Below, piece after piece: positions 17,707 to 62,013 of a stretch of DNA of 64,000 nt. Every line of letters begins with the position of its first letter. Position 1 is the first letter of the stretch. Both the position numbers and the translations under genes were made by a program. The notes below the pieces were generated by a model, which worked only from the letters and a program-made list of their open reading frames with translations, was not told the origin of the DNA and made no database searches. The stretch is from contig CALLXS010000101.1 in assembly GCA_937875295.1 (NCBI GenBank), positions 16,231 through 80,230 on the forward strand, read 5' to 3'. This DNA is from an uncultured bacterium (GTDB lineage: Bacteria > Bacteroidota > Ignavibacteria > Kapaibacteriales > UBA2268).

Positions 17707-18314
17707 TTAATTGCAATTTGCGATTTTTATATATTTCGAATCTGGATATTCTCGTCTTAACCTATCAAAGGCTTCATTAGCTTTTTTGTTTTGATTTATA
17801 TCACAATAGCATTGTCCTAAAAGAACTAAAGTAGGCTGAACAACATCAGCAGGCACACTTTTATCATTAATAAATCTATTGATAATTTCAATTGCTCCTG
17901 CTGTTGAATTGTCTTGACGTGTTGATTCTGCATAATAAAACATTGCTTGATAATACTTTGCAGTTTTCGTTTTTATAGCATCTGTATAAGTTTTAAATTC
18001 TTCTGCTGCAATAGCATAGTCATTATTATTGAATTTATTTAGAGCATTTTGGTATATATCGTCTAATTTTTATCAGCAATTGGTGAAGAATTATTTGATA
18101 TAGGACTTTTTGAAAGATATATAAAAGTTGTATCTTTTATTATAGTACTTTTAGAATTATTTTTATTTGTAGCTTTATTTTGATTGTTTATCGGGGATAA
18201 TAAATCATTTGTTTTTGAATTATTTTTATTATTATTGCTTCTTACTGATTGAGTACAAGAGTAACAAGAAATAATAAGACTAATAAATATTAGATATATA
18301 ATTTTTAATTTCAT
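17707..18314 (-). pseudogene. TPR-repeat lipoprotein interrupted by a +1 frameshift in a T5/A5 homopolymer (18067-18071)
   Basis: ORF 18063..18314 has a signal peptide plus an N/K-rich linker. TPR-like sequence continues in another frame from 18063 down to 17707. Inserting one A into GATAAAAATTAG restores a single ~200-aa ORF. Confidence 0.5.
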
Positions 18315-18384
18315 TTTTATTCTAAATTTTTATTTTTAATAAATTTATATCTAAATATATGCCAAGATTATTATCATTTTAAGA

Positions 18385-34180: not shown

Positions 34181-36949
34181 TTATACATATTTGTAAAAGT
34201 CTCTCAAGGCTTTTCCTGTATATGAATTTTCTACTTTTGCTATTTCTTTTGGGTATCCTTTTGCTACAACTAAGCCACCACCGAATCCACCTTCAGGACC
34301 TAGATCTATTATCCAATCAGAATTAGCAATTACATATAAATTATGTTCAATTACCAAAACGCTATGCCCAGCATTCACTAATTTCCTGAATGCAAGCATT
34401 AATTTATTAATGTCGTCAATATGAAGTCCTGTAGTAGGTTCATCAAAAATAAATAAATTATGTCCGGGAGTGAGAGCTTCAGTATAATTTGCTAATTTAA
34501 TTCTTTGAGCTTCACCGCCAGAAAGAGTAGAGCCGGGTTGTCCTAATTTTAAATAGCCAAGACCAATATTTTTAAGAGGTTCTAATTTTCTTACAATTTT
34601 TTCTTCATTTTTAAAGAATTCAATTGCTTCATCTACAGTCATTTCGAGGACATCTACAATTGATTTATCTTTATATAATATATTTCGAGTTTCTTTTTTA
34701 TAGCGTGTACCTTTGCAGGCTTCGCATTCGAGACGAATATCGGGCAAGAATTGCATATCAATATTTACTGTTCCTTCGCCTTGACATTCTTCGCATCTAC
34801 CACCTGGGATATTAAAAGAGAAATGTCCTGATTTAAAGCCTAATTGCTTTGCAAGCTGAGTATCAGCAAATACATCTCTTATGGAATCAAAAGCTTTTGT
34901 ATATGATACAGGAGTAGAGCGAGAGCTACGACCTATTGGAGTCTGGTCAATCATTTCTAAATTGCTAATATGTTCGTAGCCGGTAATTCCATATATTTCG
35001 CCATTATTAGTTACATAATTTGGAACTAATTTCCTTAATCTTTCATAAAGAAAATCATTAATTAATGTACTTTTTCCGGAACCGCTTACTCCGGTGATAG
35101 TACATAAGCAACCGAGTGGAATTTCTACTTTATCCATTCGTAGATTATTCATTCTAGGTTTATTAATTGTAATAATTTTTTCATTCGAGACTTTATGACT
35201 CGTTATTTCAATTTTCTTTTTTCCTGATAAATAATCAGCAGTAAGAGTTTTAGATTTTAGTAAGCCTTTGAAATCTCCGCTATATTGGATTTCCCCACCA
35301 TTTACTCCTGCTTTAGGACCCATATCAATAATATAATCAGCAGATTTCATTATTTCTGGGTCGTGCTCAATGACTATTACAGTGTTTCCTAAATCTCTCA
35401 ATTCTTTTAAAATTTTAACTAATCTTTCTGTATCGCACTGATGTAACCCTATACTTGGTTCATCAAGTACATAAAGAGTAGTTGTAAGAGCTGATCCGAT
35501 AGCAGAGGAAAGGCTAATTCTTTGTGCTTCTCCACCAGATAATGAATGAGTCAATCTATCGAGGGAGAGATATTCTAAACCAATATCGTTTAATAATTTT
35601 ATTCTATGTACAATTTCTTCTAAAATTTGTCCTGCTACTTCCGATTCATATTTGTTTAATTTTAATTCTGCGAAAAATTCATATAATTTATTTATTGGAT
35701 ATTGAATTATTTCTGGAATATTTTTGCCATTAATGAATACTTGACGAGCAGAAGTCCGTAATCTCGAGCCACCACAGACCCTACAATTTGTATATCCGCG
35801 ATAACGTGCTACTAATATTCTATTACTTATTTTATAATATTGGTCTTCTAATTCTTTAAAAAATCCATTCATTCCTTTATAGCTTTTATCGCCCATCCAA
35901 ATGAAATCTTTTTGTTCGGTGGTAAGTTCATTATATGGTACATTTAGTGGTATATTTGCTTTGCTACATTGGTAAATGAATTTCTGATAATATTGTTTAT
36001 AAGCCGGAGTGCGCCACGGTGCAAATGGATTTGCAGAAAGTGGTTTAGTTTTATCCGGAATTACTTTATCTTCATCGATGCTTATATCTCGCCCGAAACC
36101 CTGACATTTTGGACATGCTCCAAAAGGATTATTAAAAGAAAATAATCTCGGTTCAGGTTGAATATAAACTATTTGGCAATCTGCACATTCAAATTTATTA
36201 CTGAAATGTAAAGTTTTATCCAGATCTAAAAATTTAATTGAAATATTACCATCGCCATTATGAAATGCTGCTTCGATTGATTCATAAAATCTTGATTTTG
36301 AATCGGAATCATCAGAATGAATTACCATTCTATCAACTAGGACATATATATTCTTAGATTTTTTTATGTTACTAATATCATCTTCATTTATATCATAGAG
36401 CTTATCTTTCTTAGCGTCATATATACGAAAAAAGCCAGCTGAGCGAGCGTAAGAAATCTCATCGTTGATTTTCATACTTTCACGGCAAGGATAAAGCACA
36501 TATATTTTTTCGGAATAATATTTCTTAAAAATATCATCTGTTATTGACTGAGGAGTATCATGATGAACCGGTTTTCCACATTCTTTACAGATTGTATGTC
36601 CTATTCTGCCATAAAGTAATCGAATATAATCGTAAATTTCAGTTACAGTCCCTACAGTAGAACGTCCATTTTTGGAAGGTGCTTTTTGGTCAATTGCTAT
36701 AGCTGGAAGAATTCCGGAGATCTTAGTTACATCTGGCTTATTCATTCTATCCAAAAATTGACGAGCATAGGACGAAAGAGATTCTACGAATCTCCTCTGC
36801 CCTTCAGCAAAAACTGTATCGAGAGCTAATGATGTTTTTCCGGAACCGCTCACACCTGTAATTACAGTAAGTTTGCGATGAGGTATTTCTACGTTTATAT
36901 TTTTTAAATTATGGACTGAAGCGCCTTCAATCGATATTTTATTTTGCAT
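34181..36949 (-). CDS. uvrA: excinuclease ABC subunit A
   Basis: Two ABC ATPase modules (GVSGSGKTSLALD / GVSGSGKSTLIND), zinc-finger cysteines, and LSGGEAQR signature twice. Confidence 0.97.
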   Translation of the reverse strand: MQNKISIEGASVHNLKNINVEIPHRKLTVITGVSGSGKTSLALDTVFAEGQRRFVESLSSYARQFLDRMNKPDVTKISGILPAIAIDQKAPSKNGRSTVGTVTEIYDYIRLLYGRIGHTICKECGKPVHHDTPQSITDDIFKKYYSEKIYVLYPCRESMKINDEISYARSAGFFRIYDAKKDKLYDINEDDISNIKKSKNIYVLVDRMVIHSDDSDSKSRFYESIEAAFHNGDGNISIKFLDLDKTLHFSNKFECADCQIVYIQPEPRLFSFNNPFGACPKCQGFGRDISIDEDKVIPDKTKPLSANPFAPWRTPAYKQYYQKFIYQCSKANIPLNVPYNELTTEQKDFIWMGDKSYKGMNGFFKELEDQYYKISNRILVARYRGYTNCRVCGGSRLRTSARQVFINGKNIPEIIQYPINKLYEFFAELKLNKYESEVAGQILEEIVHRIKLLNDIGLEYLSLDRLTHSLSGGEAQRISLSSAIGSALTTTLYVLDEPSIGLHQCDTERLVKILKELRDLGNTVIVIEHDPEIMKSADYIIDMGPKAGVNGGEIQYSGDFKGLLKSKTLTADYLSGKKKIEITSHKVSNEKIITINKPRMNNLRMDKVEIPLGCLCTITGVSGSGKSTLINDFLYERLRKLVPNYVTNNGEIYGITGYEHISNLEMIDQTPIGRSSRSTPVSYTKAFDSIRDVFADTQLAKQLGFKSGHFSFNIPGGRCEECQGEGTVNIDMQFLPDIRLECEACKGTRYKKETRNILYKDKSIVDVLEMTVDEAIEFFKNEEKIVRKLEPLKNIGLGYLKLGQPGSTLSGGEAQRIKLANYTEALTPGHNLFIFDEPTTGLHIDDINKLMLAFRKLVNAGHSVLVIEHNLYVIANSDWIIDLGPEGGFGGGLVVAKGYPKEIAKVENSYTGKALRDFYKYV

Positions 36950-37139
36950 TAATTAACTTGGAAAATATTTAATATATCAAAAAAGAGTAATAAGATTACT
37001 CGATTTAGACATAATTTTATTTTTTGAAAAAATTAAAAATTATTTTGTTCTTAAAATATTATTTAATTCCTTATTTATATTAGAAATTAATTATAGCAAT
37101 TAAAGCATAAATACAAATAAGAAAAAAATAAATGTTTTA

Positions 37140-39545
37140 TTATTGAACAATAATATTATATTTTATTTTTTGTTCGCCGACTGAAATAATTAAGTTATAA
37201 AATCCACGATTTAATGTATTAATTTGAATTTTATAATTACCGGTCTCTGTTAAATTATTTTTATTTAATATTGATTTATTAATTTGAAAATTTGCATTTG
37301 GTACTTTTTTCCCCAATAAATCAATTAATTCAAAACTAATTTCAGGGATTTCTAAATTAGCACTATTACCTTTGTCTATTCCACCAAGTGCGTCAGATTC
37401 CTCAAAAGTGTAGTCAATATTTATTGTAGATTTTGTGGGATTTGGATATGGATAACTTGTAGAAAATATTGTTTTATTTCCGAAATCACGAGTTGCAATT
37501 GTAATTGATAGTCCGCATTTGGTGTCAACAGAGTTACTCCATATTTTGCCATAACCTTCAAGAAAAATTATTTTTTCGCTACAAAGATCGATTAATCTTA
37601 GAGTGTCATTCTGTTTCCCAAAATCTGTCGGCGAATAACAAATAGAAATAGGTTTAATTTCATTAGGTGCAAACTGTAAAGGCAACTGGCTCTGAGGGAT
37701 AGAAAAGGCAAAATTACCATTTAAAGACAATTTGCTTAAAGTAACTTGTTTAGAACTATTATTCTTAATATAAACATCTAAGCAAGATATATCTTTTGTA
37801 TATAAACTATCAAAATAAGCTGTATCAAGATTATTAAAACTAACTAATTCAAAATAGTCATTTTCGAAATCAATATTATAGCTATAAATTTGGCTAGTAT
37901 CAGCACAACCAAGAATATTTTTTGCAATCACATAAATATTTGCTGATTTATCTAATTCAATGCTATTTGCACCAGATGCAATTAATTGATTATTATCTGC
38001 ATCGTACCAATCTACTTCTTGAGGTGTACTATTCGATATAACAGTATGCTTTTTGCCAGTGCAAAGTGTAATATTGAAACTATCTTGAAGTGCTGCGATA
38101 GGCATGGCAATTATATTTACATTTACAGAATCATAATAAATGCATCCAGTAGTATCAGTCCACGCAAAACTTTTCCATCCATTTGTATTAAAATATCGTG
38201 ACGTATTATTATCACCATCGAACCAAGTAATATTATTAATTGGAGAATTAATTGAAACTAATACTGAGTCGCCATCGCAGGCTTCATAAAGAGCATTATT
38301 ATTAAATGTCAAATTAGATTTTGGCATAAGAGTAATTTCAATTGAATTAGAAGTACCGCTATCGCATTCATTTGTAGATGATTTTAAGTAATAAACTCCC
38401 GGTTTATTTACTACAATTTGCTGAGTAGTTTCTCCGGTGTTCCAGATTAAATTCTGATAATTGAGATTTGCTTTAATAATAGCATAATCGCCAGCACAAA
38501 GTTGTACTTTATCAGCTGAAATCTTAGGATTAATTGTATCTGTAATAGGTTTATATTTATATACTCCATTGCCAACTACCCATCCAGTAGTATCATCAAG
38601 AAAATATAAATCATCTAAATGAGCTCCGGGAGAAATTCCACAAAATTTTGGTGTCCAAGTTTTACCATAATCTTTTGTAAAATAAATTGATCTATCGAGA
38701 CCACACACCCAACCAGTACTATCATTTAAAAGAAATGAGCCATAGCAAGCAGTAGGGAAGTCTCTTTGAATCCAATTTTTACCGAAATCAGAAGAAAAAA
38801 CAGCACCACCTCTTGCTTGAGATCCAGCACAACTATAATCATATGGTACTAAGATTGAATTTTTAAGTATTGATAATTCTTCGTGCCAATTATTAGCTTT
38901 GATTTTAGTTATCATACTCCAAGAAGTTCCGTAATTTAAGGTCTGCCACAACATTCCGCTTGATACAGCATATCCAGTACCATTATCGTAAAGAACAATA
39001 TCAGAAAGTTTTGAATCATTAATTGAAAAATTATCATAGTGAACTTGATAAGTCCAAGAATTTCCACCATCAGTAGTTTTAAAGAAATATCTATCAGTGC
39101 AAAATCCCCCCACTAGTACGCCTTGATTTTCATTTATAAAATAAGTACCCCAGAAAGATACATCAGTCCTAGGAGACACATCTCTCCAGCTTACTCCACC
39201 ATTATCGGTTCTATATAAGCGAGAATATCTTACATCTCCTCCTGAAGAACCGACACTTACTACATATCCTACTCTTTCATTTAAAAAAATTATTGATTCT
39301 AATTGTCCAGCATAAGGGATTTGAGAACCCGACCAAGTATTTCCTCTATCTGTGCTACGCAAAAGCATTCCATTAAAACCGCATATCCACGCATAATTTG
39401 GATTCTGCGGCAAAAAGAACACTTCTAACCAATAATTATTAATAAACTGCTGTGGAATTGTTTGTACTTCTTCCCATTGAGAAAATACACTAATTGGAAA
39501 AAGTAAGCAAGCAATATAAAGTATAAATCTATTTGATAATTTCAT
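37140..39545 (-). CDS. BNR/Asp-box repeat beta-propeller protein with C-terminal T9SS sorting domain
   Basis: Signal peptide. Six or more SxDxGxTW repeats (STDRGNTW, TDNGGVSW, TTDGGNSW, NYGTSW, SDFGKNW, TKDYGKTW). C-terminus GNYKIQINTLNRGFYNLIISVGEQKIKYNIIVQ. Confidence 0.75.
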   Translation of the reverse strand: MKLSNRFILYIACLLFPISVFSQWEEVQTIPQQFINNYWLEVFFLPQNPNYAWICGFNGMLLRSTDRGNTWSGSQIPYAGQLESIIFLNERVGYVVSVGSSGGDVRYSRLYRTDNGGVSWRDVSPRTDVSFWGTYFINENQGVLVGGFCTDRYFFKTTDGGNSWTYQVHYDNFSINDSKLSDIVLYDNGTGYAVSSGMLWQTLNYGTSWSMITKIKANNWHEELSILKNSILVPYDYSCAGSQARGGAVFSSDFGKNWIQRDFPTACYGSFLLNDSTGWVCGLDRSIYFTKDYGKTWTPKFCGISPGAHLDDLYFLDDTTGWVVGNGVYKYKPITDTINPKISADKVQLCAGDYAIIKANLNYQNLIWNTGETTQQIVVNKPGVYYLKSSTNECDSGTSNSIEITLMPKSNLTFNNNALYEACDGDSVLVSINSPINNITWFDGDNNTSRYFNTNGWKSFAWTDTTGCIYYDSVNVNIIAMPIAALQDSFNITLCTGKKHTVISNSTPQEVDWYDADNNQLIASGANSIELDKSANIYVIAKNILGCADTSQIYSYNIDFENDYFELVSFNNLDTAYFDSLYTKDISCLDVYIKNNSSKQVTLSKLSLNGNFAFSIPQSQLPLQFAPNEIKPISICYSPTDFGKQNDTLRLIDLCSEKIIFLEGYGKIWSNSVDTKCGLSITIATRDFGNKTIFSTSYPYPNPTKSTINIDYTFEESDALGGIDKGNSANLEIPEISFELIDLLGKKVPNANFQINKSILNKNNLTETGNYKIQINTLNRGFYNLIISVGEQKIKYNIIVQ

Positions 39546-39662
39546 AAAATATTTTTATATGTTATTTAATTAATAACGAATAACCTCTTGAAAAGTTTTT
39601 TTTATAAGGGCAATTCATTAAAATTTAAATGATTGCTTGCAATAATTTATTTAAGTTTTAAA

Positions 39663-40517
39663 TTAATCCTCAACTAATTTAATTGCTTCGTACTTTTCGC
39701 AAGATTCTACACATTTCCCGCAATCTACACATAGAGTAGAATCTATTTTGGCAACATGATTATTATATTTAATGGCATCGTACTTTTCGCAAAATACTTT
39801 GCAGTCACCGCAAGAAGTACAAATATCTTGATTAATGGTAGGTTTTGCATAATCTAATGGATATAGCTTTGAAATTGCATTAAATTCATTACATTCTGCT
39901 AAACAAAGTCCGCAGTGATTACACAGCTCTTCATTTTTTGTAACTTTTGCTGGATTAATGGCTTCAAATGGGCATTTCCCCACACATTTTCCACATTTTG
40001 TACATTTAGATAAATCAATAATACATTTATCTTTTATCGTAATTGCACCAAATTCACAAGCTAATTGGCACTGATGATGGCAGTTAGTAGGTTTGCACTT
40101 ATTACGTATGGAATAAGTTTCTTTGGAATATGATATGCAATTCCCTTCGTTTATACATTTTTCTATACATTTACCACAACCTATACATTTATCCTCTAAA
40201 ATATTATAAGTGGGAGTGGAGATAAATATTGCTTTATCTTTGCATTGGGGTTCGCAAGTGCCACATTCAATGCATAGGTCTTGATTTATAAAATATTGTG
40301 TTTTTTGAGGCAAAAGGATTGCTTTATAATAGCAACTTTCTACACAATCACCGCACCCAGTGCATTTATCTTCGATAATAGCATATTTAGTTCTAAATGG
40401 ACTTAATACATTTTTTGTACAAGAACTCATAAATAAACTACCTGAGCATATTCCTATACCTAAAATTCCACAATCTTTTAGGAATTTTCTTCTGTTATTA
40501 ATTGATTTATTTTCCAT
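39663..40517 (-). CDS. Tat-signal polyferredoxin with about 7-8 [4Fe-4S] cluster motifs
   Basis: N-terminal NNRRKFLKDCGILGIGI twin-arginine motif. Seven canonical CxxCxxCxxxC(P/E) motifs plus one degenerate Cys cluster. Confidence 0.8.
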   Translation of the reverse strand: MENKSINNRRKFLKDCGILGIGICSGSLFMSSCTKNVLSPFRTKYAIIEDKCTGCGDCVESCYYKAILLPQKTQYFINQDLCIECGTCEPQCKDKAIFISTPTYNILEDKCIGCGKCIEKCINEGNCISYSKETYSIRNKCKPTNCHHQCQLACEFGAITIKDKCIIDLSKCTKCGKCVGKCPFEAINPAKVTKNEELCNHCGLCLAECNEFNAISKLYPLDYAKPTINQDICTSCGDCKVFCEKYDAIKYNNHVAKIDSTLCVDCGKCVESCEKYEAIKLVED

Positions 40518-40529
40518 TTTGTTTTATTA

Positions 40530-41858
40530 TTAAATTGCAAATCTAAATTCAACTCTTCCGAAATAAGTGTCTTTTATTAATTTTGTGGAAGTAATATGCC
40601 CCCCAATTAAAGTTGTTTTTAGATGATTAAAAAATCTAGCGCTTAATTCTAAATCTAATTCTTTAGTGTGGCTACCATTTGTTTGGCCAGAATATTGTAC
40701 TTTAAAATACATATTGTTTAACCAAGGAAAATCAAATTTTGTAAATAATTGAAAAACTGGCAAATCTAATGCATCCATTTTCATTACTTCACCAATAAAT
40801 AAATTAGTATATGAAGGATAAAACATTGTATTTTTATCTAATTCAATTTTGCCCACCATTGCTGCCCCAATCAAAGAGTTATACCCTTCTCCGAGTTTAA
40901 ATAATTTACTTAATTCAAGGAAATATCCAAAAGCTCTCTCTTTATATACATACTGATAAAGTAATTCAGTTTTTAAATTAATACTTAGTGGTAAATTAAA
41001 TTTGGAAAACAGCCCACCATAGTATTTGTAATCAGGAAATACTTCACCAAATTCTCCGTAGAAAATACTTCCTACTTCGCTGACAAATGGGATATTTTCT
41101 GTATCAGTAGCAAATTCAGAAAATTCATCTTCATCGCCTTCAGATTCTGAATTAGTAACTGCTTTAGTTTCTTGACTACTATTATTTACCCATTTTACTG
41201 AAGCAGCATAGAAATTTGATTCTCCAAAATTCTGTCCTAAGAAATCTACTCTGCCACCTCTTGTAAGGTTATAGACATGGCGAGTACCACAAAAATCTCC
41301 GTATCTAGCAAATTGCGCCAGTACAGTAGCAATATTTACTGCGTAAACCAAATTACCAGAACGATAGGAAGCACCTGCACCTACTACTCTTTCATCTACT
41401 AAGAAATAATCTTGTAATTTTGTAGTTTGTAGTCCTAATGAAAGCTTGATATTTTCTGAATTGAAATTGTAATAAAATTCTCTAAACCCCCAATGCTTTT
41501 TATCAACGGCAGAAAATTGTTCATAACCCGGATAATTAATAGTATCGTTCCCTTGCTTACCGGGACCGCCCTTAGAGTTATAAAAATTTTTATATCCACC
41601 TTCTACATAAAACTGATGCTTAGACTCCTTCAAATTTAAGCCTAAACCAGCTATTGCAAGACCATTTTTTACATTTCTATCAGTCATTCCAGCCATTGCT
41701 CCAGTTAATTCAATACCCCCTACAAAATACTTAGAACCAAATAATGGCTTAATTTGAGTATTTAGAATGCTTCTGCAGTCCATCGAAGAATAGCTATTAA
41801 TAGAATTCATAATTAAAAAACATATTATCGAGATTGCTCTAAAATGCTTTGAATTCAT
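40530..41858 (-). CDS. putative outer-membrane beta-barrel protein (signal peptide; co-oriented with the polyferredoxin, 12-bp gap)
   Basis: Signal peptide. Alternating-hydrophobic beta-strand pattern with an aromatic-rich C-terminus (...RVEFRFAI). No family could be assigned. Confidence 0.4.
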   Translation of the reverse strand: MNSKHFRAISIICFLIMNSINSYSSMDCRSILNTQIKPLFGSKYFVGGIELTGAMAGMTDRNVKNGLAIAGLGLNLKESKHQFYVEGGYKNFYNSKGGPGKQGNDTINYPGYEQFSAVDKKHWGFREFYYNFNSENIKLSLGLQTTKLQDYFLVDERVVGAGASYRSGNLVYAVNIATVLAQFARYGDFCGTRHVYNLTRGGRVDFLGQNFGESNFYAASVKWVNNSSQETKAVTNSESEGDEDEFSEFATDTENIPFVSEVGSIFYGEFGEVFPDYKYYGGLFSKFNLPLSINLKTELLYQYVYKERAFGYFLELSKLFKLGEGYNSLIGAAMVGKIELDKNTMFYPSYTNLFIGEVMKMDALDLPVFQLFTKFDFPWLNNMYFKVQYSGQTNGSHTKELDLELSARFFNHLKTTLIGGHITSTKLIKDTYFGRVEFRFAI

Positions 41859-42122
41859 TGGTATTTATTAGTTCATTTATTAATTGAAATATTGTTTAAT
41901 TACATTATTCACTTAGTAATTAAAAACACAAATTTATATAAATGCAAAAATATATAAATTAAATTTTAAAAAACTAATTCAATTAGAAAAAAAAATTTTA
42001 GACATTAAAAAACTAAAAAAGTTTAAATTATGTGCTAAGAAAATCGTAATTTTATGTTTTGTATATTAAATCTTAAATAAAGTAATAAATTTAAATTATA
42101 AACAAATATAGGAATTATAATA

Positions 42123-43640
42123 ATGAAAAAATTAGTTTTATTAATCCTCGTAAGTACGTTAGCTATTGCATTTATGAGTTGCAATAAACAAGAAGGAAAT
42201 GTAATGAATACTGAACCGAAAGAAGTGCAAGAACTTAAAGACAAATTATCAGCATTTACTGAATATGAAATAACTACTGATTTGTCTGCGCTTACAGAAA
42301 ATGAGAAAAAAGTCGTGCAGAAATTAGTTGAAGCTGCTAAATTAGCTGATGTAATTTTCTGGAAGCAATCAAATGCTGATGGCATTGCTATCCGTGATTC
42401 TCTCGCTAAATTAAATACTCCATTTGCCAAAGATTTATTAAAATTTGTAAATATTAACTATGGTCCTTATGACGTAATCTTTAGTCAAACTCGTTTCGTT
42501 GGTGATGGTCCGAGCAAAAAACCAGCCGGAGCTAATTTATATCCAGCTGATTTAACTAAAGAAGATTTCGAAAAATATGTGAAAGATCATCCAGAGCAAA
42601 AAGCAGAACTCGAAAGCCAATATACTATAGTTAAGCGTGATGGCGATAAATTAATCGCTGTTCCATATTATAAAGAATATCCGGAAATTGAGCAAATCGC
42701 AAAATTGATTGATGAAGCAAGTGAATTTGCTGATGATCCATCATTAAAAAGATATTTAAAAATTAGAGCTAAAGCTTTTAGAACAGATGATTATTTTGAA
42801 AGCGATATGGCTTGGATGGATATGACTAAATCGAACATTGAGACTGTAATTGGACCTATTGAAAATTATTTAGATAATTTATTTAATTATAAAACAGCTT
42901 GGGAATGCGGTGTATTTGTAAAAGATGAAGAAGCAACAAAAGAATTACAAGTACTTAAATCAAAAATTGATAATTTAGAACAGAATTTACCTTACGACAA
43001 AAAATATATTCGACCAAGTGCTGGCGGATTAGGTAATGTCTTAAATATTGTGAATGTAGTATATTTCGCTGGCGACTTCCAAGAAGCTGTGAAAACTATT
43101 GCTACTTCTCTGCCTAATGACCCAAAAGTCCATGAAATCAAAGGATCGAAAAAACTTATGTTCAAAAATATGATGGAAGCGAAATTCGAGAAAATAGTGA
43201 TGCCGATTGCTCAAGAATTAATGAGTGAAGAAGATGTAAAATTCGTTGATAAAAAAGCTTTTACAAGTTTCGTAACTCTTCACGAAATTTCTCATACTTT
43301 AGGTAGAGGCTTCGTATTTGGAAATGATAAATTATCGGTTCGCGCTGGAATGAAAGATTTATATTCTACTATCGAAGAAGCAAAAGCAGACATATTAAGT
43401 ATGTATAATCATCAATATTTAATTGAACAAAGCGTATATCCGCAAGATTATTTACGTAAAGCTACTGCTACTTATTTAGCAGGTCTTTTCCGCTCAATGA
43501 GATTTGGTAAAGAAGAAGCTCACGGTGGTGCTAATTTCATTCAATTCAATTTCTTACGTTCTAACGGTGCGATTGAACTAGTAGATGGAAAATTTAAAAT
43601 AAATAATGAAATATTTATGCAAAAATATGTATATATATGA
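42123..43640 (+). CDS. HExxH zinc metallopeptidase lipoprotein (gluzincin-like: HEISH ... EEAKAD); reading frame continues after an in-frame TGA to 43811
   Basis: Lipobox AFMSC. HEISHTLG and a downstream ExxxD motif. The next 56 in-frame codons (43641-43808) are stop-free and protein-like. Confidence 0.7.
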   Translation: MKKLVLLILVSTLAIAFMSCNKQEGNVMNTEPKEVQELKDKLSAFTEYEITTDLSALTENEKKVVQKLVEAAKLADVIFWKQSNADGIAIRDSLAKLNTPFAKDLLKFVNINYGPYDVIFSQTRFVGDGPSKKPAGANLYPADLTKEDFEKYVKDHPEQKAELESQYTIVKRDGDKLIAVPYYKEYPEIEQIAKLIDEASEFADDPSLKRYLKIRAKAFRTDDYFESDMAWMDMTKSNIETVIGPIENYLDNLFNYKTAWECGVFVKDEEATKELQVLKSKIDNLEQNLPYDKKYIRPSAGGLGNVLNIVNVVYFAGDFQEAVKTIATSLPNDPKVHEIKGSKKLMFKNMMEAKFEKIVMPIAQELMSEEDVKFVDKKAFTSFVTLHEISHTLGRGFVFGNDKLSVRAGMKDLYSTIEEAKADILSMYNHQYLIEQSVYPQDYLRKATATYLAGLFRSMRFGKEEAHGGANFIQFNFLRSNGAIELVDGKFKINNEIFMQKYVYI

Positions 43641-43957
43641 ATTGAAAAAAAATCTAAAATTGTTCTTACATTAGAAGCAGAAGGCGACTATGTCGGAGCC
43701 ACAGATCTTATTGCTAAATATGGTCACGAAAATAAAGAAATCGAAGATGCAATTGCAAAATTGTCTAAAATACCAAGAGATTTAGATACAAAATATAATA
43801 TTAAGTACTAATGAATTTGAGAACAGAAAAAATATTTTAAGAAATAGAATTATATTTTATTAATTCTTTTATAATATTTTTTTAATTAATCTTGAATTAA
43901 ATAATTCTTGTAAAAATAAAGTTTAGTTATTATAATAAATAAATCAGTTAAAAAATT

Positions 43958-45097
43958 ATGTCTCAAAAAAGAACAAAAAAAGATAGCTATAAAATAGCTT
44001 GGTTACCCGGCGACGGTGTAGGAGTGGAAGTACTCGAAGCAACTAAAATTGTATTAGATAAGCTAAATTTCAAAGCTGAATATATCAATGGTGATATTGG
44101 CTGGGAATTCTGGTGCAAAGAAGGTGATGCCTTCCCAGAAAGAACAATAGAACTACTTAAAAATGTAGATGCTGCAATGTTTGGTGCTATTACTTCAAAG
44201 CCAGTAAAAGCTGCTGAAGCAGAATTAGTACCAGAATTACGTGGGAAAGGATTAGTATATCGCTCTCCAATTGTGAGAATGAGACAGACTTTCGATTTAT
44301 ATAATTGCCTAAGACCTTGCAAAGCATATCCGGGCAATCCACTAAATTATAAAGACAGTATAGACATAGTAGTATTTAGAGAAAATACTGAAGATATGTA
44401 TTGCGGTGTGGAATTTAATCCAGTACCAAATGAACTAATTGATACATTAAATAAAATTTCTAAACCATTTGCGAAATTCGCTTCTCTTAAAGGAGATGAA
44501 TATGCAATATCTTGCAAAATAAATACTCGCAAAGGGTCAGAAAGAATTATTCGAGCTGCTTTTGAATTTGCTAAAGAGCATAATCGCAAAAAAGTAACAT
44601 TAGTACATAAAGCAAATGTAGTACGTGCTACTGATGGCTTATTCTTCGAAATAGCAAAAGAAGTTGCAAAGGAATATCCTGAAATTTATATGGATGATGC
44701 TAACATCGACGCAATGACTATGTGGTTACTAAAAAATCCAGATAATTATGATGTATTAGTTGCTCCTAATTTATATGGTGATATTATAAGCGATTTGGCT
44801 GCTCAAATGGTAGGAGGTCTAGGCTTTGGTTGCTCAGGAAATATAGGAGAAAATTTGGGTGTATTCGAGCCTTCTCATGGTTCGGCTCCTAAATATACTG
44901 GTTTATATAAAGTAAATCCTATTGCTACAATTCTTGCTGCAAAAATGATGTTGGATTGGTTAGGCGAAATCGAAATGGCAAATAAAATTGAAAAAGCAGT
45001 AGAAGATGTAATTAAAGAAGGCAAAGTAAGAACTTATGATATGGGAGGAGCAAATACAACTCTCGAAATGGGTCAAGCTATAGCCGACAAAATATAG
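43958..45097 (+). CDS. isocitrate/isopropylmalate dehydrogenase family protein (likely NAD-dependent isocitrate dehydrogenase)
   Basis: IAWLPGDGVGVEV N-terminus and NLYGDIISDLAAQMVGGLG signature. Confidence 0.85.
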   Translation: MSQKRTKKDSYKIAWLPGDGVGVEVLEATKIVLDKLNFKAEYINGDIGWEFWCKEGDAFPERTIELLKNVDAAMFGAITSKPVKAAEAELVPELRGKGLVYRSPIVRMRQTFDLYNCLRPCKAYPGNPLNYKDSIDIVVFRENTEDMYCGVEFNPVPNELIDTLNKISKPFAKFASLKGDEYAISCKINTRKGSERIIRAAFEFAKEHNRKKVTLVHKANVVRATDGLFFEIAKEVAKEYPEIYMDDANIDAMTMWLLKNPDNYDVLVAPNLYGDIISDLAAQMVGGLGFGCSGNIGENLGVFEPSHGSAPKYTGLYKVNPIATILAAKMMLDWLGEIEMANKIEKAVEDVIKEGKVRTYDMGGANTTLEMGQAIADKI

Positions 45098-45112
45098 TTG
45101 TTCTATAAAAAT

Positions 45113-45156
45113 AATTCCACCTCTAATAATAATCAGAGGTGGAATTTTTTATTTAC
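45113..45156. terminator. bidirectional terminator between the dehydrogenase and glyQS
   Basis: aattccacctct / aataataatc / agaggtggaatt followed by tttttattt. Confidence 0.8.
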
Positions 45157-45194
45157 TTCCATTTTCATTCAGCATGAAAATACAAAATTGTCAT

Positions 45195-46616
45195 TTACCT
45201 AATCAATTTATCACTGATATAATTACTAATTTTATCCGCATTAATTCTCACTTGTTGCATTGAGTCTCTCTCGCGTATAGTAACTGTATTATCATTTAAA
45301 GTATCACCATCGATAGTAATGCAGAATGGCGTACCAATTTCATCTTGTCTACGGTATCGTCTTCCAATAGCACCGCTTGTGTCATATTGAGCTTTAAAGT
45401 TTTTCTGCACATCGTCAAATACTTTTTCAGCATATTCTGGCATTCCATCTTTATTAACTAATGGGAATACTGCAGCTTTAATTGGTGATAATTGAGGTAC
45501 AAATTTCATTACATTTCGAGTATCTTCTTTACCTGAATCATCAGTTAATTTTTCTTCAGTATAAGCATTACAAAGAAATGCCATTAATCCTCTAGTTGTC
45601 CCACCGGAAGTTTCAATCACATAAGGCACATATCTATCTTTATTAACTGTATCGACATATTCTAATTTTTTGCCTGAAAATTCTTGATGAGCTTTTAGGT
45701 CAAAGTCAGTACGAGAATGAATACCTTCAATTTCTCCCCATCCGAATGGGAATAAATATTCTATATCACAGGCTTTATTTGCATAATGAGCTAATTTTTC
45801 ATGATCTTTGAAGCGAATTACTTCTGGTGCCATTCCATTCTCAATGTACCAGTGCCATCTTTTTTCTTTCCAATATTCATACCACTCGAGTTCTGTACCG
45901 GGCTTAACAAAATATTGCATTTCCATTTGTTCAAATTCGCGAGTGCGGAATAGGAAATTCTTAGTGTTTATTTCGTTTCGAAATGCTTTACCTATTTGAG
46001 CAATTCCAAAAGGTGGTTTCATTCTAGCACTATCCATAATATTTTTGAAATTCACGAAAATACCTTGTGCAGACTCTGGTCTTAAGTAAATTGTACTTGC
46101 TGAATCATCAACCGGTCCTAGGAAAGTCTTAAACATTAGATTAAAATTTCTAACTTCTGTCCAATCTGTACCACCAGATACAGGGTCAGGAATACTGAAA
46201 TTCATAATTATATTATAATAATCATTAGGTTCTTTAGCTTTTGAGAGTTCAATTTCTAATTTATCAGCAATTTCATTTTTATTTTTTTTGCGTAATTTTT
46301 CAATATATTCTTCAATTAAATTATCAGCTCTGTAGCGACCTTTGCTAGCTTTGTTGTCTATCATTGGGTCAGAGAATTGAGTAATATGTCCGCTTGCTTC
46401 CCAAGTGCGAGGGTGCATTAAAATTGATGCGTCCACTCCTACAATATCTTGGCGATATGTCATAGCTTTCCACCAAGATTCTTTAATATTTTTTAGCAAT
46501 TCTACTCCTAATGGTCCGAAATCCCAACAACCATTTAATCCACCATAAATTTCTGACGATTGAAATACAAAACCTCTTTGTTTTGCTAATGAAATGATAG
46601 TTTCTAATTTTATCAT
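45195..46616 (-). CDS. glyQS: glycine--tRNA ligase (dimeric class II GlyQS type)
   Basis: MIKLETIISLAKQRGFVFQSSEIYGGLNGCWDFGPLGVELL N-terminus and a C-terminal anticodon-binding domain. Confidence 0.93.
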   Translation of the reverse strand: MIKLETIISLAKQRGFVFQSSEIYGGLNGCWDFGPLGVELLKNIKESWWKAMTYRQDIVGVDASILMHPRTWEASGHITQFSDPMIDNKASKGRYRADNLIEEYIEKLRKKNKNEIADKLEIELSKAKEPNDYYNIIMNFSIPDPVSGGTDWTEVRNFNLMFKTFLGPVDDSASTIYLRPESAQGIFVNFKNIMDSARMKPPFGIAQIGKAFRNEINTKNFLFRTREFEQMEMQYFVKPGTELEWYEYWKEKRWHWYIENGMAPEVIRFKDHEKLAHYANKACDIEYLFPFGWGEIEGIHSRTDFDLKAHQEFSGKKLEYVDTVNKDRYVPYVIETSGGTTRGLMAFLCNAYTEEKLTDDSGKEDTRNVMKFVPQLSPIKAAVFPLVNKDGMPEYAEKVFDDVQKNFKAQYDTSGAIGRRYRRQDEIGTPFCITIDGDTLNDNTVTIRERDSMQQVRINADKISNYISDKLIR

Positions 46617-46771
46617 AATAAATTTTTTAAATATTAAATTTGTTAAATTTTAGACTTCAAAATTACGAAATAAAAGGAGAATTTACATTAAGTTTTTATT
46701 ATTTAACTATTAAAATAAAAAACAATTATATCGTTTAATATTTTTTAATACTTTCTATTTTATAATATTTA

Positions 46772-47440
46772 GTGATAAATAAAATGAATATAATTTTAAT
46801 AGGACCTCCCGGTTCTGGCAAAGGTACTCAAGCAAAGATGATTTCTTCTAAGTATAATTTAGTTCATTTATCTACTGGAGATATTATTCGAGAACAGATT
46901 AAAGCTAATACTGAATTAGGTAATATTGCCAAAACTTACATTGAACAAGGTAAACTATTGCCTGATGAATATTTAATTTCAATGATTAAATCATTTTTAT
47001 CGAAAAAAGATGGTTCAAATGGATTCATTTTTGACGGTTTCCCGCGCACAATATCACAAGCTGAAACATTAGAAAAGATATTAGCTGAAAATGATTCGGA
47101 GTTAAATTCAGTTATAATATTAAATGTTAGCGATAAATTAATTATGGAAAGGTTAAGTGATCGCAGGATTTGTCCAGTGTGCAATGCTATTTACCATAAT
47201 GTTTATAACCCACCAAAAAGTCCAGATGTCTGCGATTTAGATAATGCTTCTCTATTCCAAAGAGATGATGACAAAGAAGAAACGATTGCTTATAGATTAA
47301 ATGTATATCATAATATCACTAAACCATTGATAGAATTTTATCAAAAGAAAAATTTAATAGAGTTGATTGATGGTTCATTACTTTTTGATGATGTATTTTC
47401 AGCAATTACTAATAAATTAGATATTATAGAAAATAAATAG
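46772..47440 (+). CDS. adk: adenylate kinase (zinc-lid type)
   Basis: IILIGPPGSGKGTQA P-loop. LID cysteines CPVC...C..D. Confidence 0.95.
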   Translation: MINKMNIILIGPPGSGKGTQAKMISSKYNLVHLSTGDIIREQIKANTELGNIAKTYIEQGKLLPDEYLISMIKSFLSKKDGSNGFIFDGFPRTISQAETLEKILAENDSELNSVIILNVSDKLIMERLSDRRICPVCNAIYHNVYNPPKSPDVCDLDNASLFQRDDDKEETIAYRLNVYHNITKPLIEFYQKKNLIELIDGSLLFDDVFSAITNKLDIIENK

Positions 47441-47463
47441 AAAAGAAAATGCATTAATTAATA

Positions 47464-48777
47464 TTATTTTTGCCAAATAATTAGTATTGAATCTTTGCCA
47501 TAATTATTAGCAATCAATTTTCTTATTTGGTTAATTTTATTATTATTTATTTTGTTTTTCGAATTATAGATTAAAATTGGTTTAAGATATGAACTAGTGT
47601 CGTTGTAATAAATATTCATATCCTGAAAACCAATTTCAGTAATTTCCGGTGCTATAATTTGTAAATTTGAAAGCAATTTATCTGTTTCGTAATTTTTCAA
47701 ACTTCTATAATTAAAGATTGAATCAAGTCTATTTGTGTTATAACTGATTAGTCTTTGGCTTTTTGATACTTCATTCATCAAATCATTTCTCATATTCATC
47801 AAATCTTTTGAATTGTTCGATTTAATTTCGAGTTTTGTATTAAAGATGTTATATCTACTTAGCGTTTTACTTAATGAATCTTCTTGCTTTTCGGTAAAAT
47901 CATCAGATAAAAATGCCAATTCGATAATATTGGAGCTTGACGGATTATAATGAACTTTTTGATAAACTAGAGTAAATCCATTTTCAATAAATTCAGATTC
48001 TATAAATTGTTTTGATGAAATGATGAATTTTTGCTTTTCGTAAAGCATTATAGCAAAGTATATGCTTGGAAGCAGTACTATAATTGTTATTATTCCTAAT
48101 GAATATTTAATAATTTTTTTTCTTTGTGGTGCTATAAATACTTTACTCTTAAAATTTAAAAATTTTACTATTATAATAGTTGCTACAAAAATAAAGGTAC
48201 AATTTATTATATAAAGATACATTGCTCCAAAGAATATTTGAGCATTTTGTAATGCTAACCCATATCCAGCAGTGCATAATGGTGGCATTAAAGCTGTAGC
48301 AATCGCTACTCCGGGGATTGGATTCCCTTTATCCTTGCGTGTGATAGCCACTGCTCCAGTAAGCCCTCCGAAAAATGCGATTATTACATCATAAATAGTA
48401 GGAGAAGTTCTCGATAGTAATTCAGATTGTAGTTCTTTAAATGGACTTAACCAGAAATATATCCCTGATGCAATTAAAGATATTAATGTAGCAATTAATA
48501 AATTTCTACCCGATTTCTTAAGCAAATCTAAATCATATATGGCTATTCCGAATCCCGCTGCGACTATTGGCCCCATCAAAGGAGATATTAACATTGCACC
48601 GATTATTACAGGAATAGAATTTAAATTTAATCCCACTGAAGCAATAATAATTGCAAATACTAATGTCCATGCTGAAGCACCCATAAAATATGAATTTTCT
48701 TCTACATATTTTAAGACTGCATCAGGATTATCTATACCTTTATTAAGAGAAAATAACCTTTTTATATATTCTTTCAT
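47464..48777 (-). CDS. DUF389 (TIGR00341) family membrane protein
   Basis: VIIGAMLISPLMGPIVAAGFGIAIYD core and multiple TM helices. Confidence 0.6.
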   Translation of the reverse strand: MKEYIKRLFSLNKGIDNPDAVLKYVEENSYFMGASAWTLVFAIIIASVGLNLNSIPVIIGAMLISPLMGPIVAAGFGIAIYDLDLLKKSGRNLLIATLISLIASGIYFWLSPFKELQSELLSRTSPTIYDVIIAFFGGLTGAVAITRKDKGNPIPGVAIATALMPPLCTAGYGLALQNAQIFFGAMYLYIINCTFIFVATIIIVKFLNFKSKVFIAPQRKKIIKYSLGIITIIVLLPSIYFAIMLYEKQKFIISSKQFIESEFIENGFTLVYQKVHYNPSSSNIIELAFLSDDFTEKQEDSLSKTLSRYNIFNTKLEIKSNNSKDLMNMRNDLMNEVSKSQRLISYNTNRLDSIFNYRSLKNYETDKLLSNLQIIAPEITEIGFQDMNIYYNDTSSYLKPILIYNSKNKINNNKINQIRKLIANNYGKDSILIIWQK

Positions 48778-48910
48778 AATGAAAAATAATTAGAAAAAAA
48801 GAAATATATAATATACTAAATATAATTGTGATAAAAAAGTATATTAAAATATTAATATTATTTAGACGTTCCATTTTATATAGACTATTTATTCACTAAG
48901 AAAAAATAAT

Positions 48911-50272
48911 ATGATGGGAACAAAAGAAAAACAAAAAATATTTTCAAATTACAGAAAAAAAATTGCTAATATTTTAGACGAAAACGCTACATATTCAAAT
49001 TGGATTGATTGGAAATGGCAAATTAAACATTCAATTACTACAATAGAGCAATTTCAAAAATTAATGGAAATTGAATTTTCCGAAGAAGAAATAAAAAAAT
49101 TTGAGCATACAATAGAAAAATTTCCATTATCCATCACACCTTACTATCTATCACTAATCAACAAAGATAATTTATTCAATGACCCTGTATTTAAGCAATC
49201 TTTTTTAGATGAGCGAGAATTAATTATTACAAATAGAGATATTGCTGACCCTTTGTCAGAAGACAAAGATTCACCGGTATCGTGCATCACTCATAGGTAT
49301 CCTGATAGAGTATTGTTTCTAGTAAGCAATGTATGTTCTATGTATTGCAGGCATTGTACTAGGAAAAGAAAAGTTGGTGATAAGGATTCCATTCCAAATA
49401 AAGAGAACATATTAAAAGGAATAGAATATATAAAAGAGCATCCAGAAGTGCGAGATGTATTGCTATCAGGAGGTGATCCGTTAATGCTATCTGATAAATA
49501 TTTAGAGTGGATATTAGACGAAATATCTAAAATCCCCACTGTAGAAGTTATCAGAATAGGAACAAGAATGCCTGTAGTACTTCCGTATAGGATTACAGAC
49601 AAACTCATTAATATTCTTAAAAAATATAAAAATTTGTGGATTAATACTCATTTTAATCATCCACAAGAAATAACAAAATCCGCCAAAATTGCTCTAAATA
49701 AATTATCTGAAATAGGAATTCCCTTAGGAAACCAAACAGTTTTATTAGCAGAAGTCAATGATTGCCCAAGAATAATTAAATCATTAGTACATAAATTAGT
49801 AGCAAATAGAGTCAGACCGTATTATTTATATCAATGTGATTTATCAGAAGGTCTAACACATTTCCGCACTCCAATTGGAAAAGGGATAGAAATAATGGAG
49901 AGCTTAATTGGTCACACAAGCGGCTTTTCGGTACCAACTTATGTCGTTGATGCTCCAGGTGGTGGTGGGAAAATTCCAATTACACCTAATTATATAGTTT
50001 CGTGGAATACAAATAAAGTTGTCTTGAGAAATTATGAAGGAGTACTATCAATATACCAAGAACCTCTAAATTATGCACATAATTTCTGTGATAGGAATTG
50101 TATTGATTGTAAACTTGAATTGCATTTAGCTGATGGAGAAGAATCTCACTTAATCGGAATTGAAAAATTATTGTCGGACTCAGATAAATCAATTTCATTG
50201 ATACCAGAAAATAATGAAAGAATAAAGAAAAGAAGGATATTAAGAAACAATAAAAAGTTAATAAATGATTAA
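48911..50272 (+). CDS. ablA: lysine 2,3-aminomutase (radical SAM, KamA/AblA)
   Basis: [15 protein letters not shown] radical-SAM CxxxCxxC with KamA-family context. Overlaps the next gene by 8 nt. Confidence 0.85.
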
Positions 50273-51759: not shown

Positions 51760-53097
51760 TTATCTTCCAAACCCCATTGGCATTTTTAATCCTTGCATAA
51801 AGCGAGATCGCTTGCCGGTAGAAATATTTTTCATAATTTTGCTCATATCTTCGAATTGTTTTAATAATTTATTTACATCTTGGATAGTAGAGCCGCTACC
51901 ATTTGCTATTCTCTTTCTGCGTGAGCCATTTATAATTTTTGGATTTTTTCTTTCTTCTTTAGTCATAGATAAAATGATTGATTCGACTTTATTAAAAGCT
52001 TTGTCATCAATTTGTACATTTTTCATTTGTTTATCCATGCCTGGAAGCAAGCCAATTAAATCTCTTAAAGAACCCATTTTTTTAATTGTCTTTAATTGAG
52101 TCAAAAAGTCTTCGAAGGTGAATTGATTCTTTCGAATTTTTTCTTCTAATTCTTTTGCCTCTTTTTCGTCGAATTCTTGTTCAGTTTTTTCTACTAAAGT
52201 GAGAATATCACCCATACCTAAAATACGGCTTGCAATTCTCTCGGGGTGAAACGGTTCAAGAGCTTCGGTTTTTTCGCCAGTACCTACGTATTTAATAGGT
52301 TTACCGACTACTGATAGTACCGATAGAGCAGCACCACCTCTAGTGTCGCCATCTAATTTAGTTAGGACGACTCCAGTAAGTGCAAGCTGGTCGTGAAAAG
52401 CTTTTGCAGTAGTAACGGCATCTTGCCCAATCATTGCATCGCAAACGAATAGGGTCTCTGTTGGTTTTATCGCATCAGAGATGTTTTTTACTTCCTGCAT
52501 CATTTCTTCATCTACAGTTAATCTACCAGCTGTATCGACGATTACAATATCTCTACCAAACTTTTTAGCATAAGCTAAAGCATTTGAAGCAATTTTTACT
52601 GCATCTTTTACTTCTTCAGAGTAGACAGGGATATTCACTGATTCTCCCAACTGTTTAAGTTGGTCAATCGCAGCCGGTCTATGAATATCACATGCTACGA
52701 GCAATGGCTGACGACCTTTTTTACGTAAATTTTTAGATAATTTTGCGCAAAAAGTAGTCTTTCCCGAACCTTGCAATCCAGCTACCAAAATAACGGTAGG
52801 GGCTTGTGGAGAAAACATAAGTTCGCTTTGCTTGCTTCCGAGTAGTTCAATTAGTTCGTCGTGTACAATTTTTACAATAAGCTGTTCGGGCAATAATTTT
52901 CCTTTTACTTCTTGCCCAATTGCTTTTTCTTTTACTTTTTCAGTAAAATTTTTAGCTACATTGAAATTTACGTCTGCATCGAGTAATGCGCGGCGTACTT
53001 CCTTCATAGCTTCTTGTATATTTTCTTCGGAAATAGTGGCTTGGCCTCTAAATTTCTTAAGGGCTACCTCTAATTTCTCGGTCAAATTTTCAAACAT
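51760..53097 (-). CDS. ffh: signal recognition particle protein Ffh
   Basis: N domain, G domain VAGLQGSGKTTFCAKL, and a Met-rich M domain at the C-terminus. Confidence 0.95.
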   Translation of the reverse strand: MFENLTEKLEVALKKFRGQATISEENIQEAMKEVRRALLDADVNFNVAKNFTEKVKEKAIGQEVKGKLLPEQLIVKIVHDELIELLGSKQSELMFSPQAPTVILVAGLQGSGKTTFCAKLSKNLRKKGRQPLLVACDIHRPAAIDQLKQLGESVNIPVYSEEVKDAVKIASNALAYAKKFGRDIVIVDTAGRLTVDEEMMQEVKNISDAIKPTETLFVCDAMIGQDAVTTAKAFHDQLALTGVVLTKLDGDTRGGAALSVLSVVGKPIKYVGTGEKTEALEPFHPERIASRILGMGDILTLVEKTEQEFDEKEAKELEEKIRKNQFTFEDFLTQLKTIKKMGSLRDLIGLLPGMDKQMKNVQIDDKAFNKVESIILSMTKEERKNPKIINGSRRKRIANGSGSTIQDVNKLLKQFEDMSKIMKNISTGKRSRFMQGLKMPMGFGR

Positions 53098-60165: not shown

Positions 60166-62013
60166 ATGAAAAGAACATTAATTACCTCTGCCTTGCCTTA
60201 TGCAAATGGTTATTTGCATTTAGGACACTGCGCCGGAGCATATCTACCTGCAGATATTTATGCTAGATATTTAAGATTGCGTGGCGAAGATGTGCTGTAT
60301 GTCTGTGGTTCTGATGAACATGGAGTGGCAATTACTATTGCAGCAGAAAAAGAAAAAGTAACACCAAGAGATATTATTGATAAATATCACTATGCAAATA
60401 AAGAGGCTTTCGAGAAATTTGGAATGAGCTTTGATATTTATAGTAGGACTTCTAACAAATCACACCATGAAACTGCAAGAGAATTTTTCGCTGATTTCTT
60501 TAAAAAAGGTTTACTCCTCGAAAAGGATGAAGAGCAGTTCTATGACCCTAAAGCCGAAATGTTCCTACCTGATAGATATGTCGAAGGTACTTGCCCAAAT
60601 TGCGGTAGTGATAATGCAAGAGGCGACCAATGCGATAGCTGTGGAGCGTATTATAATCAATTAGAATTAAAAAACCCAAAAAGTCTTATTACAGGTGATG
60701 TACCAATTGTAAAAAATACAACTCATTGGTATATGCAATTTAATAGATTTCAAGAATTTCTAGAAAATTATATCGAAAGCAATGCTAACGAATGGAAAGA
60801 CAATGTTTTGCAGCAAAGCAGAAGCTGGCTCAAACAAGGTTTTTCTGAAAGAGCTATTACACGTGATTTAAATTGGGGTGTTAGTATTAATAATATAGAA
60901 GGAATACCGGCAGAAAAAGCTGAAGGAAAAGTACTTTATGTATGGTTCGATGCTGTATTAGGATATATTACTGCCACTAAAGAAATTATCAGACAATTTA
61001 ATGAAAATGGAAAAGCTGAACTTATAGATTGGGAAAAATGGTGGAAATCAGAAGATACTGATTATTTTGCTTTCATAGGAAAAGATAATATAGTGTTTCA
61101 TACTTTAATATTTCCGTCTATGCTTCATGCCAAAGGTGATGGTTATATTTTACCAAAAAATGTCCCAGCAAATGAATTTCTAAATTTAGAGGGCGAAAAA
61201 TTTTCTAAATCGCGTAATTGGAGCATTGATTTAAAGGATTTTGAAGAAGCTCATCCTCAAGATAATATGATATCAACTCTCCGATATACTTTAGCAATGA
61301 ATTTCCCAGAAACTAAAGATGCAGATTTCACTTGGAAAGATTTTCAAGCACGAAACAACAATGAATTATCTGCAATTTTAGGAAATTATATTAATAGGTC
61401 ATTGCAATTCTTGCATAAAAATTTCGATGGGAAAGTACCAGAATTAGAAGGAAAATATTCTAATTTAAAAGTAGAAAGTATTGATTTAATTAATAAATTA
61501 ATTAGCGGAGATGCTTCATTTGATAAGAATACTTTAAATTATTCATCTTTAGAACAAAATGAAATAGATTTCATTATTTCTGCTACAGAATCTAAAAAGT
61601 TAATTGATAAAAATTACCAGCAATTTAGATTTAGAGATGCTATAACTGAATCAATGAACATTGCTCGATATGCAAATAAGTATTTTAATGATGAAGAGCC
61701 TTGGAAAACCATTAAAACTGATAAAACAAAAGCTGCAAAAACAGTGTATTTCTGTACTCAAATTACAAAAGCTCTTGCAATTATTTTTGCTCCAATCGTT
61801 CCAAATTCAGCAAAGGAAATATTTGAATTTATAAATGAAAAGATAACTACTGGAGAAGCAAATGCTTGCGATACAATTAAAACAAATCATTGGGATAGTG
61901 CCTTTGATTTCTCTATAGAATCTGGACGTACTATTGAATTGCCCAAATTACTCTTTAGTAAAGTGGAGCAGGACTTCATCGATGCTGAAATTGCTAAATT
62001 AGGCAATAAATAA
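60166..62013 (+). CDS. metG: methionine--tRNA ligase (short form with zinc knuckle)
   Basis: ITSALPYANGYLHLGH (HIGH region), CPNCGSDNARGDQCDSCG, and KFSKS (KMSKS). Confidence 0.95.
   Translation: MKRTLITSALPYANGYLHLGHCAGAYLPADIYARYLRLRGEDVLYVCGSDEHGVAITIAAEKEKVTPRDIIDKYHYANKEAFEKFGMSFDIYSRTSNKSHHETAREFFADFFKKGLLLEKDEEQFYDPKAEMFLPDRYVEGTCPNCGSDNARGDQCDSCGAYYNQLELKNPKSLITGDVPIVKNTTHWYMQFNRFQEFLENYIESNANEWKDNVLQQSRSWLKQGFSERAITRDLNWGVSINNIEGIPAEKAEGKVLYVWFDAVLGYITATKEIIRQFNENGKAELIDWEKWWKSEDTDYFAFIGKDNIVFHTLIFPSMLHAKGDGYILPKNVPANEFLNLEGEKFSKSRNWSIDLKDFEEAHPQDNMISTLRYTLAMNFPETKDADFTWKDFQARNNNELSAILGNYINRSLQFLHKNFDGKVPELEGKYSNLKVESIDLINKLISGDASFDKNTLNYSSLEQNEIDFIISATESKKLIDKNYQQFRFRDAITESMNIARYANKYFNDEEPWKTIKTDKTKAAKTVYFCTQITKALAIIFAPIVPNSAKEIFEFINEKITTGEANACDTIKTNHWDSAFDFSIESGRTIELPKLLFSKVEQDFIDAEIAKLGNK

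Follow-up and report, generated by a model that had tools for sequence, protein, structure and literature searches.

The peptidase gene and its surroundings

Examination of the window, that is, the whole 64-kb stretch of DNA analysed here, identified on the plus strand an ORF of 505 codons that, in the window sequence and the accompanying ORF list, starts at ATG 42123 and ends at TGA 43638–43640 (Table 1). Past this stop codon, the same frame stays open for another 56 codons (IEKKSKIVLTLEAEGDYVGATDLIAKYGHENKEIEDAIAKLSKIPRDLDTKYNIKY) until a TAA at 43809–43811. The preliminary description of the locus, made from the sequence alone, had reported the ORF, its TGA and the open frame beyond it, and these coordinates were confirmed.

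Table 1. Features of the interrupted peptidase gene (window positions).
Feature	Position	Strand	Remarks
Truncated ORF	42123–43640	+	505 aa and TGA; native residues 1–501, then foreign YVYI
Signal/lipoprotein-like leader ending in Cys20 (…AFMSC)	42123–42182	+	From alignment columns
First zinc-binding motif, HEISH	43281–43295	+	Residues 387–391; read from sequence
Second zinc-binding motif, EEAKAD	43374–43391	+	Residues 418–423; read from sequence
Record-private 30-nt block, TATGTATATATATGAATTGAAAAAAAATCT	43626–43655	+	Encodes YVYI, stop, IEKKS; from DNA alignments
TGA stop codon	43638–43640	+	Inside the private block
Orphaned native C-terminus	43656–43811	+	51 codons, native residues 507–557, KIVLTLEAEGDY…DTKYNIKY, and native TAA

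The gene is predicted to be an ordinary short bacterial dipeptidyl-peptidase III (DPP III) of family M49, HEXXH subtype, of the secreted or lipoprotein type. The Pfam profile PF03571 (Peptidase_M49) matches the ORF with 58.2 bits (gathering cut-off, 21), and the intact protein from a sister assembly matches the DPP III of Caldithrix abyssi (PDB 6EOM, the closest solved structure; E=4e-127) and that of Corallococcus (PDB 5ZUM; E=4e-95). In an alignment of 43 homologues, H387, E388 and H391 of the first zinc-binding motif are invariant, as are E418, E419, K421, A422 and D423 of the second one. The N-terminus probably represents a signal or lipoprotein leader: Cys20 is nearly invariant across the family alignment, and a lipoprotein leader model matches this region weakly, under its cut-off. 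The relatives that encode this protein are metagenome-assembled genomes (MAGs) labelled Ignavibacteriota, Kapaibacteria or Chlorobiota, the best match among species-representative genomes being 83% identical.

The HEISH pentapeptide, an atypical zinc motif, and the second zinc motif have been described for the C. abyssi DPP III, in the solved structure of which the zinc-bearing upper domain continues until residue 541 and residues 542–555 return to the lower domain (PMC5805324). The window gene is about 40% identical to this enzyme over the full length (query residues 3–554 against chain residues 2–549) and shares with it the HEISH and EEXKAD motifs and, probably, the N-terminal signal peptide; the solved C-terminus of the Caldithrix protein corresponds to the codons that in the window follow the TGA. 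Unlike the Caldithrix enzyme, the window copy is interrupted at residue 502 and, as written, is devoid of most of helix 498–515, helices 518–528 and 533–540, and the terminal strand. The intact allele (protein P0121) was modelled with AlphaFold (pLDDT 90.4, pTM 0.86), and the model superposes on 6EOM with TM scores of 0.90/0.95 and an rmsd of 1.6 Å. The complete two-lobe fold is present in this model, in which the tail region comprises the end of helix 498–515, helices 518–528 and 533–540, and a strand at 548–556; from the ORF as written, residues 502–557 are missing.

Several other features of the window were recorded. At 39663–41858, on the minus strand, a 284-aa poly-ferredoxin with a twin-arginine-like leader (NRRKFLKDCG…) is adjoined by a 442-aa protein without a Pfam match, whose syntenic position upstream of the peptidase gene is conserved. 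Three large secreted proteins (20448–23138, 23242–25323 and 37140–39545) carry type-IX-secretion sorting domains (Por_Secre_tail), which fits an organism of the Ignavibacteriota/Bacteroidota group. The largest stretches without an ORF of at least 90 aa are 17688–18384 (697 nt) and 30211–30690 (480 nt), and neither contained an Rfam family at gathering thresholds.

The block around the stop codon and the codons beyond it

With a GC content of 28.9% in the window, the frequency of stops among random codons is about 0.082, so that the chance of 56 stop-free codons is p ~0.009. The earlier argument that such a run is unlikely by chance is borne out by this arithmetic but is weakened by the 55 open codons that also lie 3′ of another long ORF in the same window, 60166–62013, a likely gene. 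Open-frame length by itself is only suggestive of a coding tail; it is homology that is decisive. Among the best 120 of the 3528 significant homologues, most are 545–570 aa long and cover 93–100% of the read-through translation, and the orthologues are about 557 aa long, tail included. Intact 557-aa proteins from this population end in the same residues as those encoded by the final 51 of the 56 codons, with the tail being the same in P0121 and in two sister contigs (L003 and L004). All 17 relatives examined can be aligned with the tail, which contains invariant residues and shows no decay; compared with the 83%-identical orthologue, dN/dS is 0.09 in the last 57 codons and 0.08 elsewhere in the gene, values that point to purifying selection on the tail. 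Thus, the suspicion voiced in the preliminary description that the tail is real coding sequence proved justified: the orthologues extend through it, and it is conserved. Its characterization of all 56 codons as protein-like has to be narrowed to the last 51, which are the native C-terminus, whereas the first five (IEKKS) are foreign.

These five residues and the last four of the ORF (YVYI) are encoded not by native sequence but by a private block of 30 nt, which replaces the 15 nt GTTGCTGAATTAGCT that encode the conserved VAELA (native residues 502–506). The block is AT-rich (13% GC) and of low complexity, and the only part that it has in common with the 15-nt form is the hexamer TGAATT, around which G/C bases have been lost and A/T runs have grown longer. 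The frame survives across the block owing to the net gain of 15 nt. In the protein alignment, 17 of 17 relatives are gapped opposite YVYI and the stop and have VAELA-like residues opposite IEKKS; the comparison of orthologues that had been proposed earlier accordingly finds a gap, not a residue, opposite the TGA, which replaces no conserved residue. The alignments show that the 15-nt form is ancestral and that no other record has the lesion.

Searches for a source of the block within the window, allowing up to 3 mismatches, found no second copy; a k-mer search of the window for a donor yielded low-complexity matches at chance level only (26, where the mean was 13 and the 95th percentile 42), and there is no tandem duplication at the block. 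Template switching or gene conversion from a donor in the window was therefore rejected for lack of a donor copy. The block allele had no matches in viral contigs, and none in JGI metagenome contigs either as flank-gap-flank or as the bare 30-mer, but these nulls are weak, given that the JGI contig from this population stops at 43862, just short of the gene. The block was also considered as a new promoter or terminator, a candidate that was dropped because no promoter-like or terminator-like site overlaps it; promoter-like sites are no more common than in shuffled sequence.

Sister assemblies and the origin of the block

The window was compared with a contig from run SRR1561989, the ENA contigs from ERZ922853 and ERZ27283042, a JGI contig (3300029825), and Logan contigs from SRR28678185, SRR28678186 and SRR24204752. 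Jointly, these sister contigs cover 62.5 of the 64 kb with zero single-base differences, and no change other than the block is confined to the window; over the 17,674 nt that the ENA MEGAHIT contig of the fermentation metagenome SRR1561989 shares with the window, the two sequences match exactly outside the block. Judging from these comparisons, the population, which is Ignavibacteriota/Kapaibacteria-like, is near-clonal. The 15-nt form is found in five contigs from five runs, namely, SRR1561989, SRR28678186, SRR24204752, SRR24204668 and that of the 83%-identical species. P0121 is the exact protein haplotype of the window (including the nearby V in DYVGAT) minus the block. The truncated 505-aa product (P0123) is on public record from a single 81-kb NCBI/ENA contig; given that it is public, the block was already in the sequence as deposited and did not arise by local corruption of the window.

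Other variation was seen in the same assemblies. The Logan contig from SRR24204752 (L001; window 36123–49812) is identical to the window until 43692, about 0.9% divergent over 43693–48916 and identical again to 49812, a mosaic that might be either a strain recombination tract or a strain-mosaic contig; all single-nucleotide indels between the window and this contig are intergenic. A Logan contig from SRR24204668 (L067:~887), which carries the L001-type haplotype, has A7 instead of A6 at window position 42998, and this +1 A frameshift splits the DPP III gene into pieces of 307 and 248 aa; either this gene has been hit independently a second time, or the extra A is a low-coverage homopolymer error. 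In the JGI contig Ga0134835_1002532 (L068), 5 nt of pheS (window 9147–9151) and 22 nt of a cinA-like gene (10148–10169, flanked by AAATTTTAA direct repeats) are missing, so that both genes are broken in that contig and intact in the window; private small lesions thus do occur in assemblies of this population. At about 53016–53097 of the window (L074:6229–6683), three short-read contigs end or diverge: the JGI contig tracks the window up to ATGTTTGA, at the start of an ffh-like gene, and then continues into unrelated AT-rich DNA with a small lipoprotein-like ORF, due to either structural variation or a chimeric contig.

Two explanations offered in the preliminary description, a nonsense mutation and a sequencing error, both survive, albeit in an altered form because the lesion is a replacement of 15 nt by 30 nt that contain a TGA rather than a single nonsense substitution. 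We lean towards a local assembly or consensus error, with the organism itself having the intact 557-aa gene seen in the sister assemblies, and infer an in silico rather than an in vivo origin of the block. Under this scenario, an intact 557-aa DPP III gene would be present in the organism, and during contig assembly, gap-filling or polishing, 15 nt in the conserved C-terminal helix would have been turned into the AT-rich, TGA-containing block of 30 nt; the ORF as written ends at codon 505, and the native C-terminus of 51 codons follows the block untouched, in the same frame. Several lines of evidence argue for such an error. The change is private to one record from a population without a SNP over 62.5 kb, and it belongs to no simple mutation class, being neither a tandem duplication nor derived from a donor copy; the loss of G/C and the expansion of A/T runs around the retained TGAATT look like a corrupted consensus, not a replication error. 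Small private lesions in conserved genes (pheS and the cinA-like gene) are present in the JGI contig from the same population. Furthermore, the block lies 38 nt from position 43693, where the co-occurring haplotype diverges, and about 200 nt from the end of the JGI contig at 43862. Short-read contigs break at 9160, 17797/18068, 43862 and about 53016–53090, and the 81-kb source contig spans every one of these points, which suggests a different, more aggressive joining or polishing. In being private, low-complexity and AT-rich, in its location near break and haplotype-switch sites, and in breaking a conserved gene, the block resembles errors of metagenome assembly, gap-filling or polishing.

Some observations are at odds with an assembly or consensus error. 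The block adds novel sequence, being neither a deletion nor a change in homopolymer length, and short-read assemblers based on De Bruijn graphs do not normally create 30 nt that are absent from the reads. The record is otherwise flawless over 62.5 kb with many homopolymers, which makes an assembly that is error-prone throughout, such as a nanopore-only one, less likely. The independent +1 A at 42998 (an A6 run, SRR24204668) hints that the gene may be dispensable and truly decaying, and the truncated product P0123 has been publicly deposited.

Some of the same observations speak for the alternative that the block is a real, very recent complex insertion-substitution, with its premature TGA, in the source strain or a sub-population, a possibility that we take seriously while holding it somewhat less likely than not to be the case. 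The consequence would be a nascent pseudogene or a truncated, likely unstable enzyme, caught before further decay. The lack of other errors over 62.5 kb fits this alternative, as does the fact that graph assemblers output only k-mers found in reads; enrichment and reactor populations that are this clonal can fix private mutations, and the DPP III gene carries a separate frameshift in another sample. In addition, the intergenic location of all single-base indels relative to L001 implies that this region of the record behaves as real, selected DNA. However, with zero SNPs in 62.5 kb, very few mutations are expected per gene; a real lesion would have to belong to a rare, non-templated complex class, and the block is found in one record only. 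The frameshift in L067 is subject to ascertainment bias, having been found because the protein is split, and might itself be a low-coverage homopolymer error. Similarly to a fresh pseudogene, the gene has an in-frame stop, is intact in all relatives and is followed by a remnant that is still protein-like; in contrast to the usual fresh pseudogene, the change is a complex 30-for-15-nt replacement, not a point nonsense mutation or a frameshift, and is confined to a single record that otherwise has not diverged from the sister assemblies. If the block is real and the frameshift at 42998 is taken together with it, the secreted DPP III would be undergoing recurrent, ongoing inactivation in this near-clonal, Kapaibacteria-like population of fermentation or reactor communities; we consider this extension doubtful, but if it is true, gene loss would have been caught at time zero and would possibly be adaptive.

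Decoding of the TGA codon and annotation of the gene

The interruption is not programmed: recoding signals and a restart codon are absent, and the stop is not conserved. All readings that invoke programmed decoding or recoding are, even when taken jointly, very improbable. Among these, read-through of the UGA or insertion of selenocysteine, either of which would produce a full-length peptidase of 561 residues, is highly improbable, notwithstanding that UGA is the leakiest bacterial stop codon, that the frame is kept (+15 nt) and that the tail is intact. In this gene, it is the extension that is conserved among the relatives, and the stop is unique to this record; the TGA lies in sequence that is missing from every relative, even from contigs with 100% identity elsewhere, and the suggestion of programmed TGA read-through in the preliminary description is abandoned on these grounds. 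The product of read-through would also be predicted to have ten foreign residues in place of VAELA inside the conserved helix 498–515.

The selenocysteine option, which already had been deemed unlikely, gained nothing from the search for a SECIS element 3′ of the TGA, which found no fold beyond chance and no Rfam match. The region 43630–43710 folds with –10.9 kcal/mol (z = –0.58), and 55 of 200 shuffled sequences fold at least as well; an Rfam scan of 43300–44000 returned only noise, with nothing near a gathering score. A search of the whole window for Rfam families and tRNAs detected tRNA-Val only, with no tRNA-Sec in the 64 kb, and 17 of the 17 aligned relatives are gapped opposite the stop, so that no Cys, Sec or Trp column corresponds to it. 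The resemblance to known selenocysteine recoding (such as in fdhF, with a SECIS directly 3′ of the UGA) is limited to the in-frame UGA and the open frame; unlike in such genes, the UGA lacks conservation, a SECIS-like hairpin and a Cys/Sec column among the homologues, and the window is devoid of a tRNA-Sec. As a second potential case of read-through, we considered the ORF pair 27580–28695 and 28720–29718, which share a frame, with one TAA and eight codons between them, and which turned out to be separate genes for a YkuD L,D-transpeptidase and a SIS-CBS (KpsF-like) protein, respectively.

Genome-wide reassignment of TGA (code 4 or 25), which would make the ORF 561 codons long, is even more remote. 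The genome is AT-rich (28.9% GC), like many recoded lineages, but Ignavibacteriota and Kapaibacteria use the standard code, and TGA is shown to be a true stop in this organism. Of the 46 ORFs in the window, 37 end in TAA, 6 in TAG and 3 in TGA; the other 45 long ORFs, of up to 1120 aa, are uninterrupted with TGA as a stop. In the GrpE gene (8081–8833), TGA occurs at the natural end, five residues past a complete Pfam domain (profile positions 4–164 of 165), and the ComF-like phosphoribosyltransferase gene (3664–4398) also terminates in TGA; the Trp codon in the peptidase gene is TGG. Global recoding of TGA had been excluded from the start on similar grounds, and the present data concur. A split gene, with the 56-codon tail translated separately and reassembling with the body, can be dismissed at the same negligible level of probability: the open frame is all that favours it, neither an in-frame ATG, GTG or TTG nor a listed ORF is present in the tail, the only nearby ATG (43637–43639) is out of frame and reads M-N-stop, and no relative is split at this site.

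The finding bears mainly on annotation quality: the locus is best described as a DPP III gene with an interruption, which may be an assembly error or mark a pseudogene, and neither 505-aa peptidase nor recoding candidate is a suitable label. No new mechanism is implied; the features taken together are those that typically mark a fresh pseudogene or an error in the local sequence. For scans of this kind, sister assemblies from one population provide a useful control, because comparing a window with them immediately tells private lesions and conserved recoding apart. A real lesion would be a minor instance of a gene that was inactivated very recently in a clonal population from the environment.
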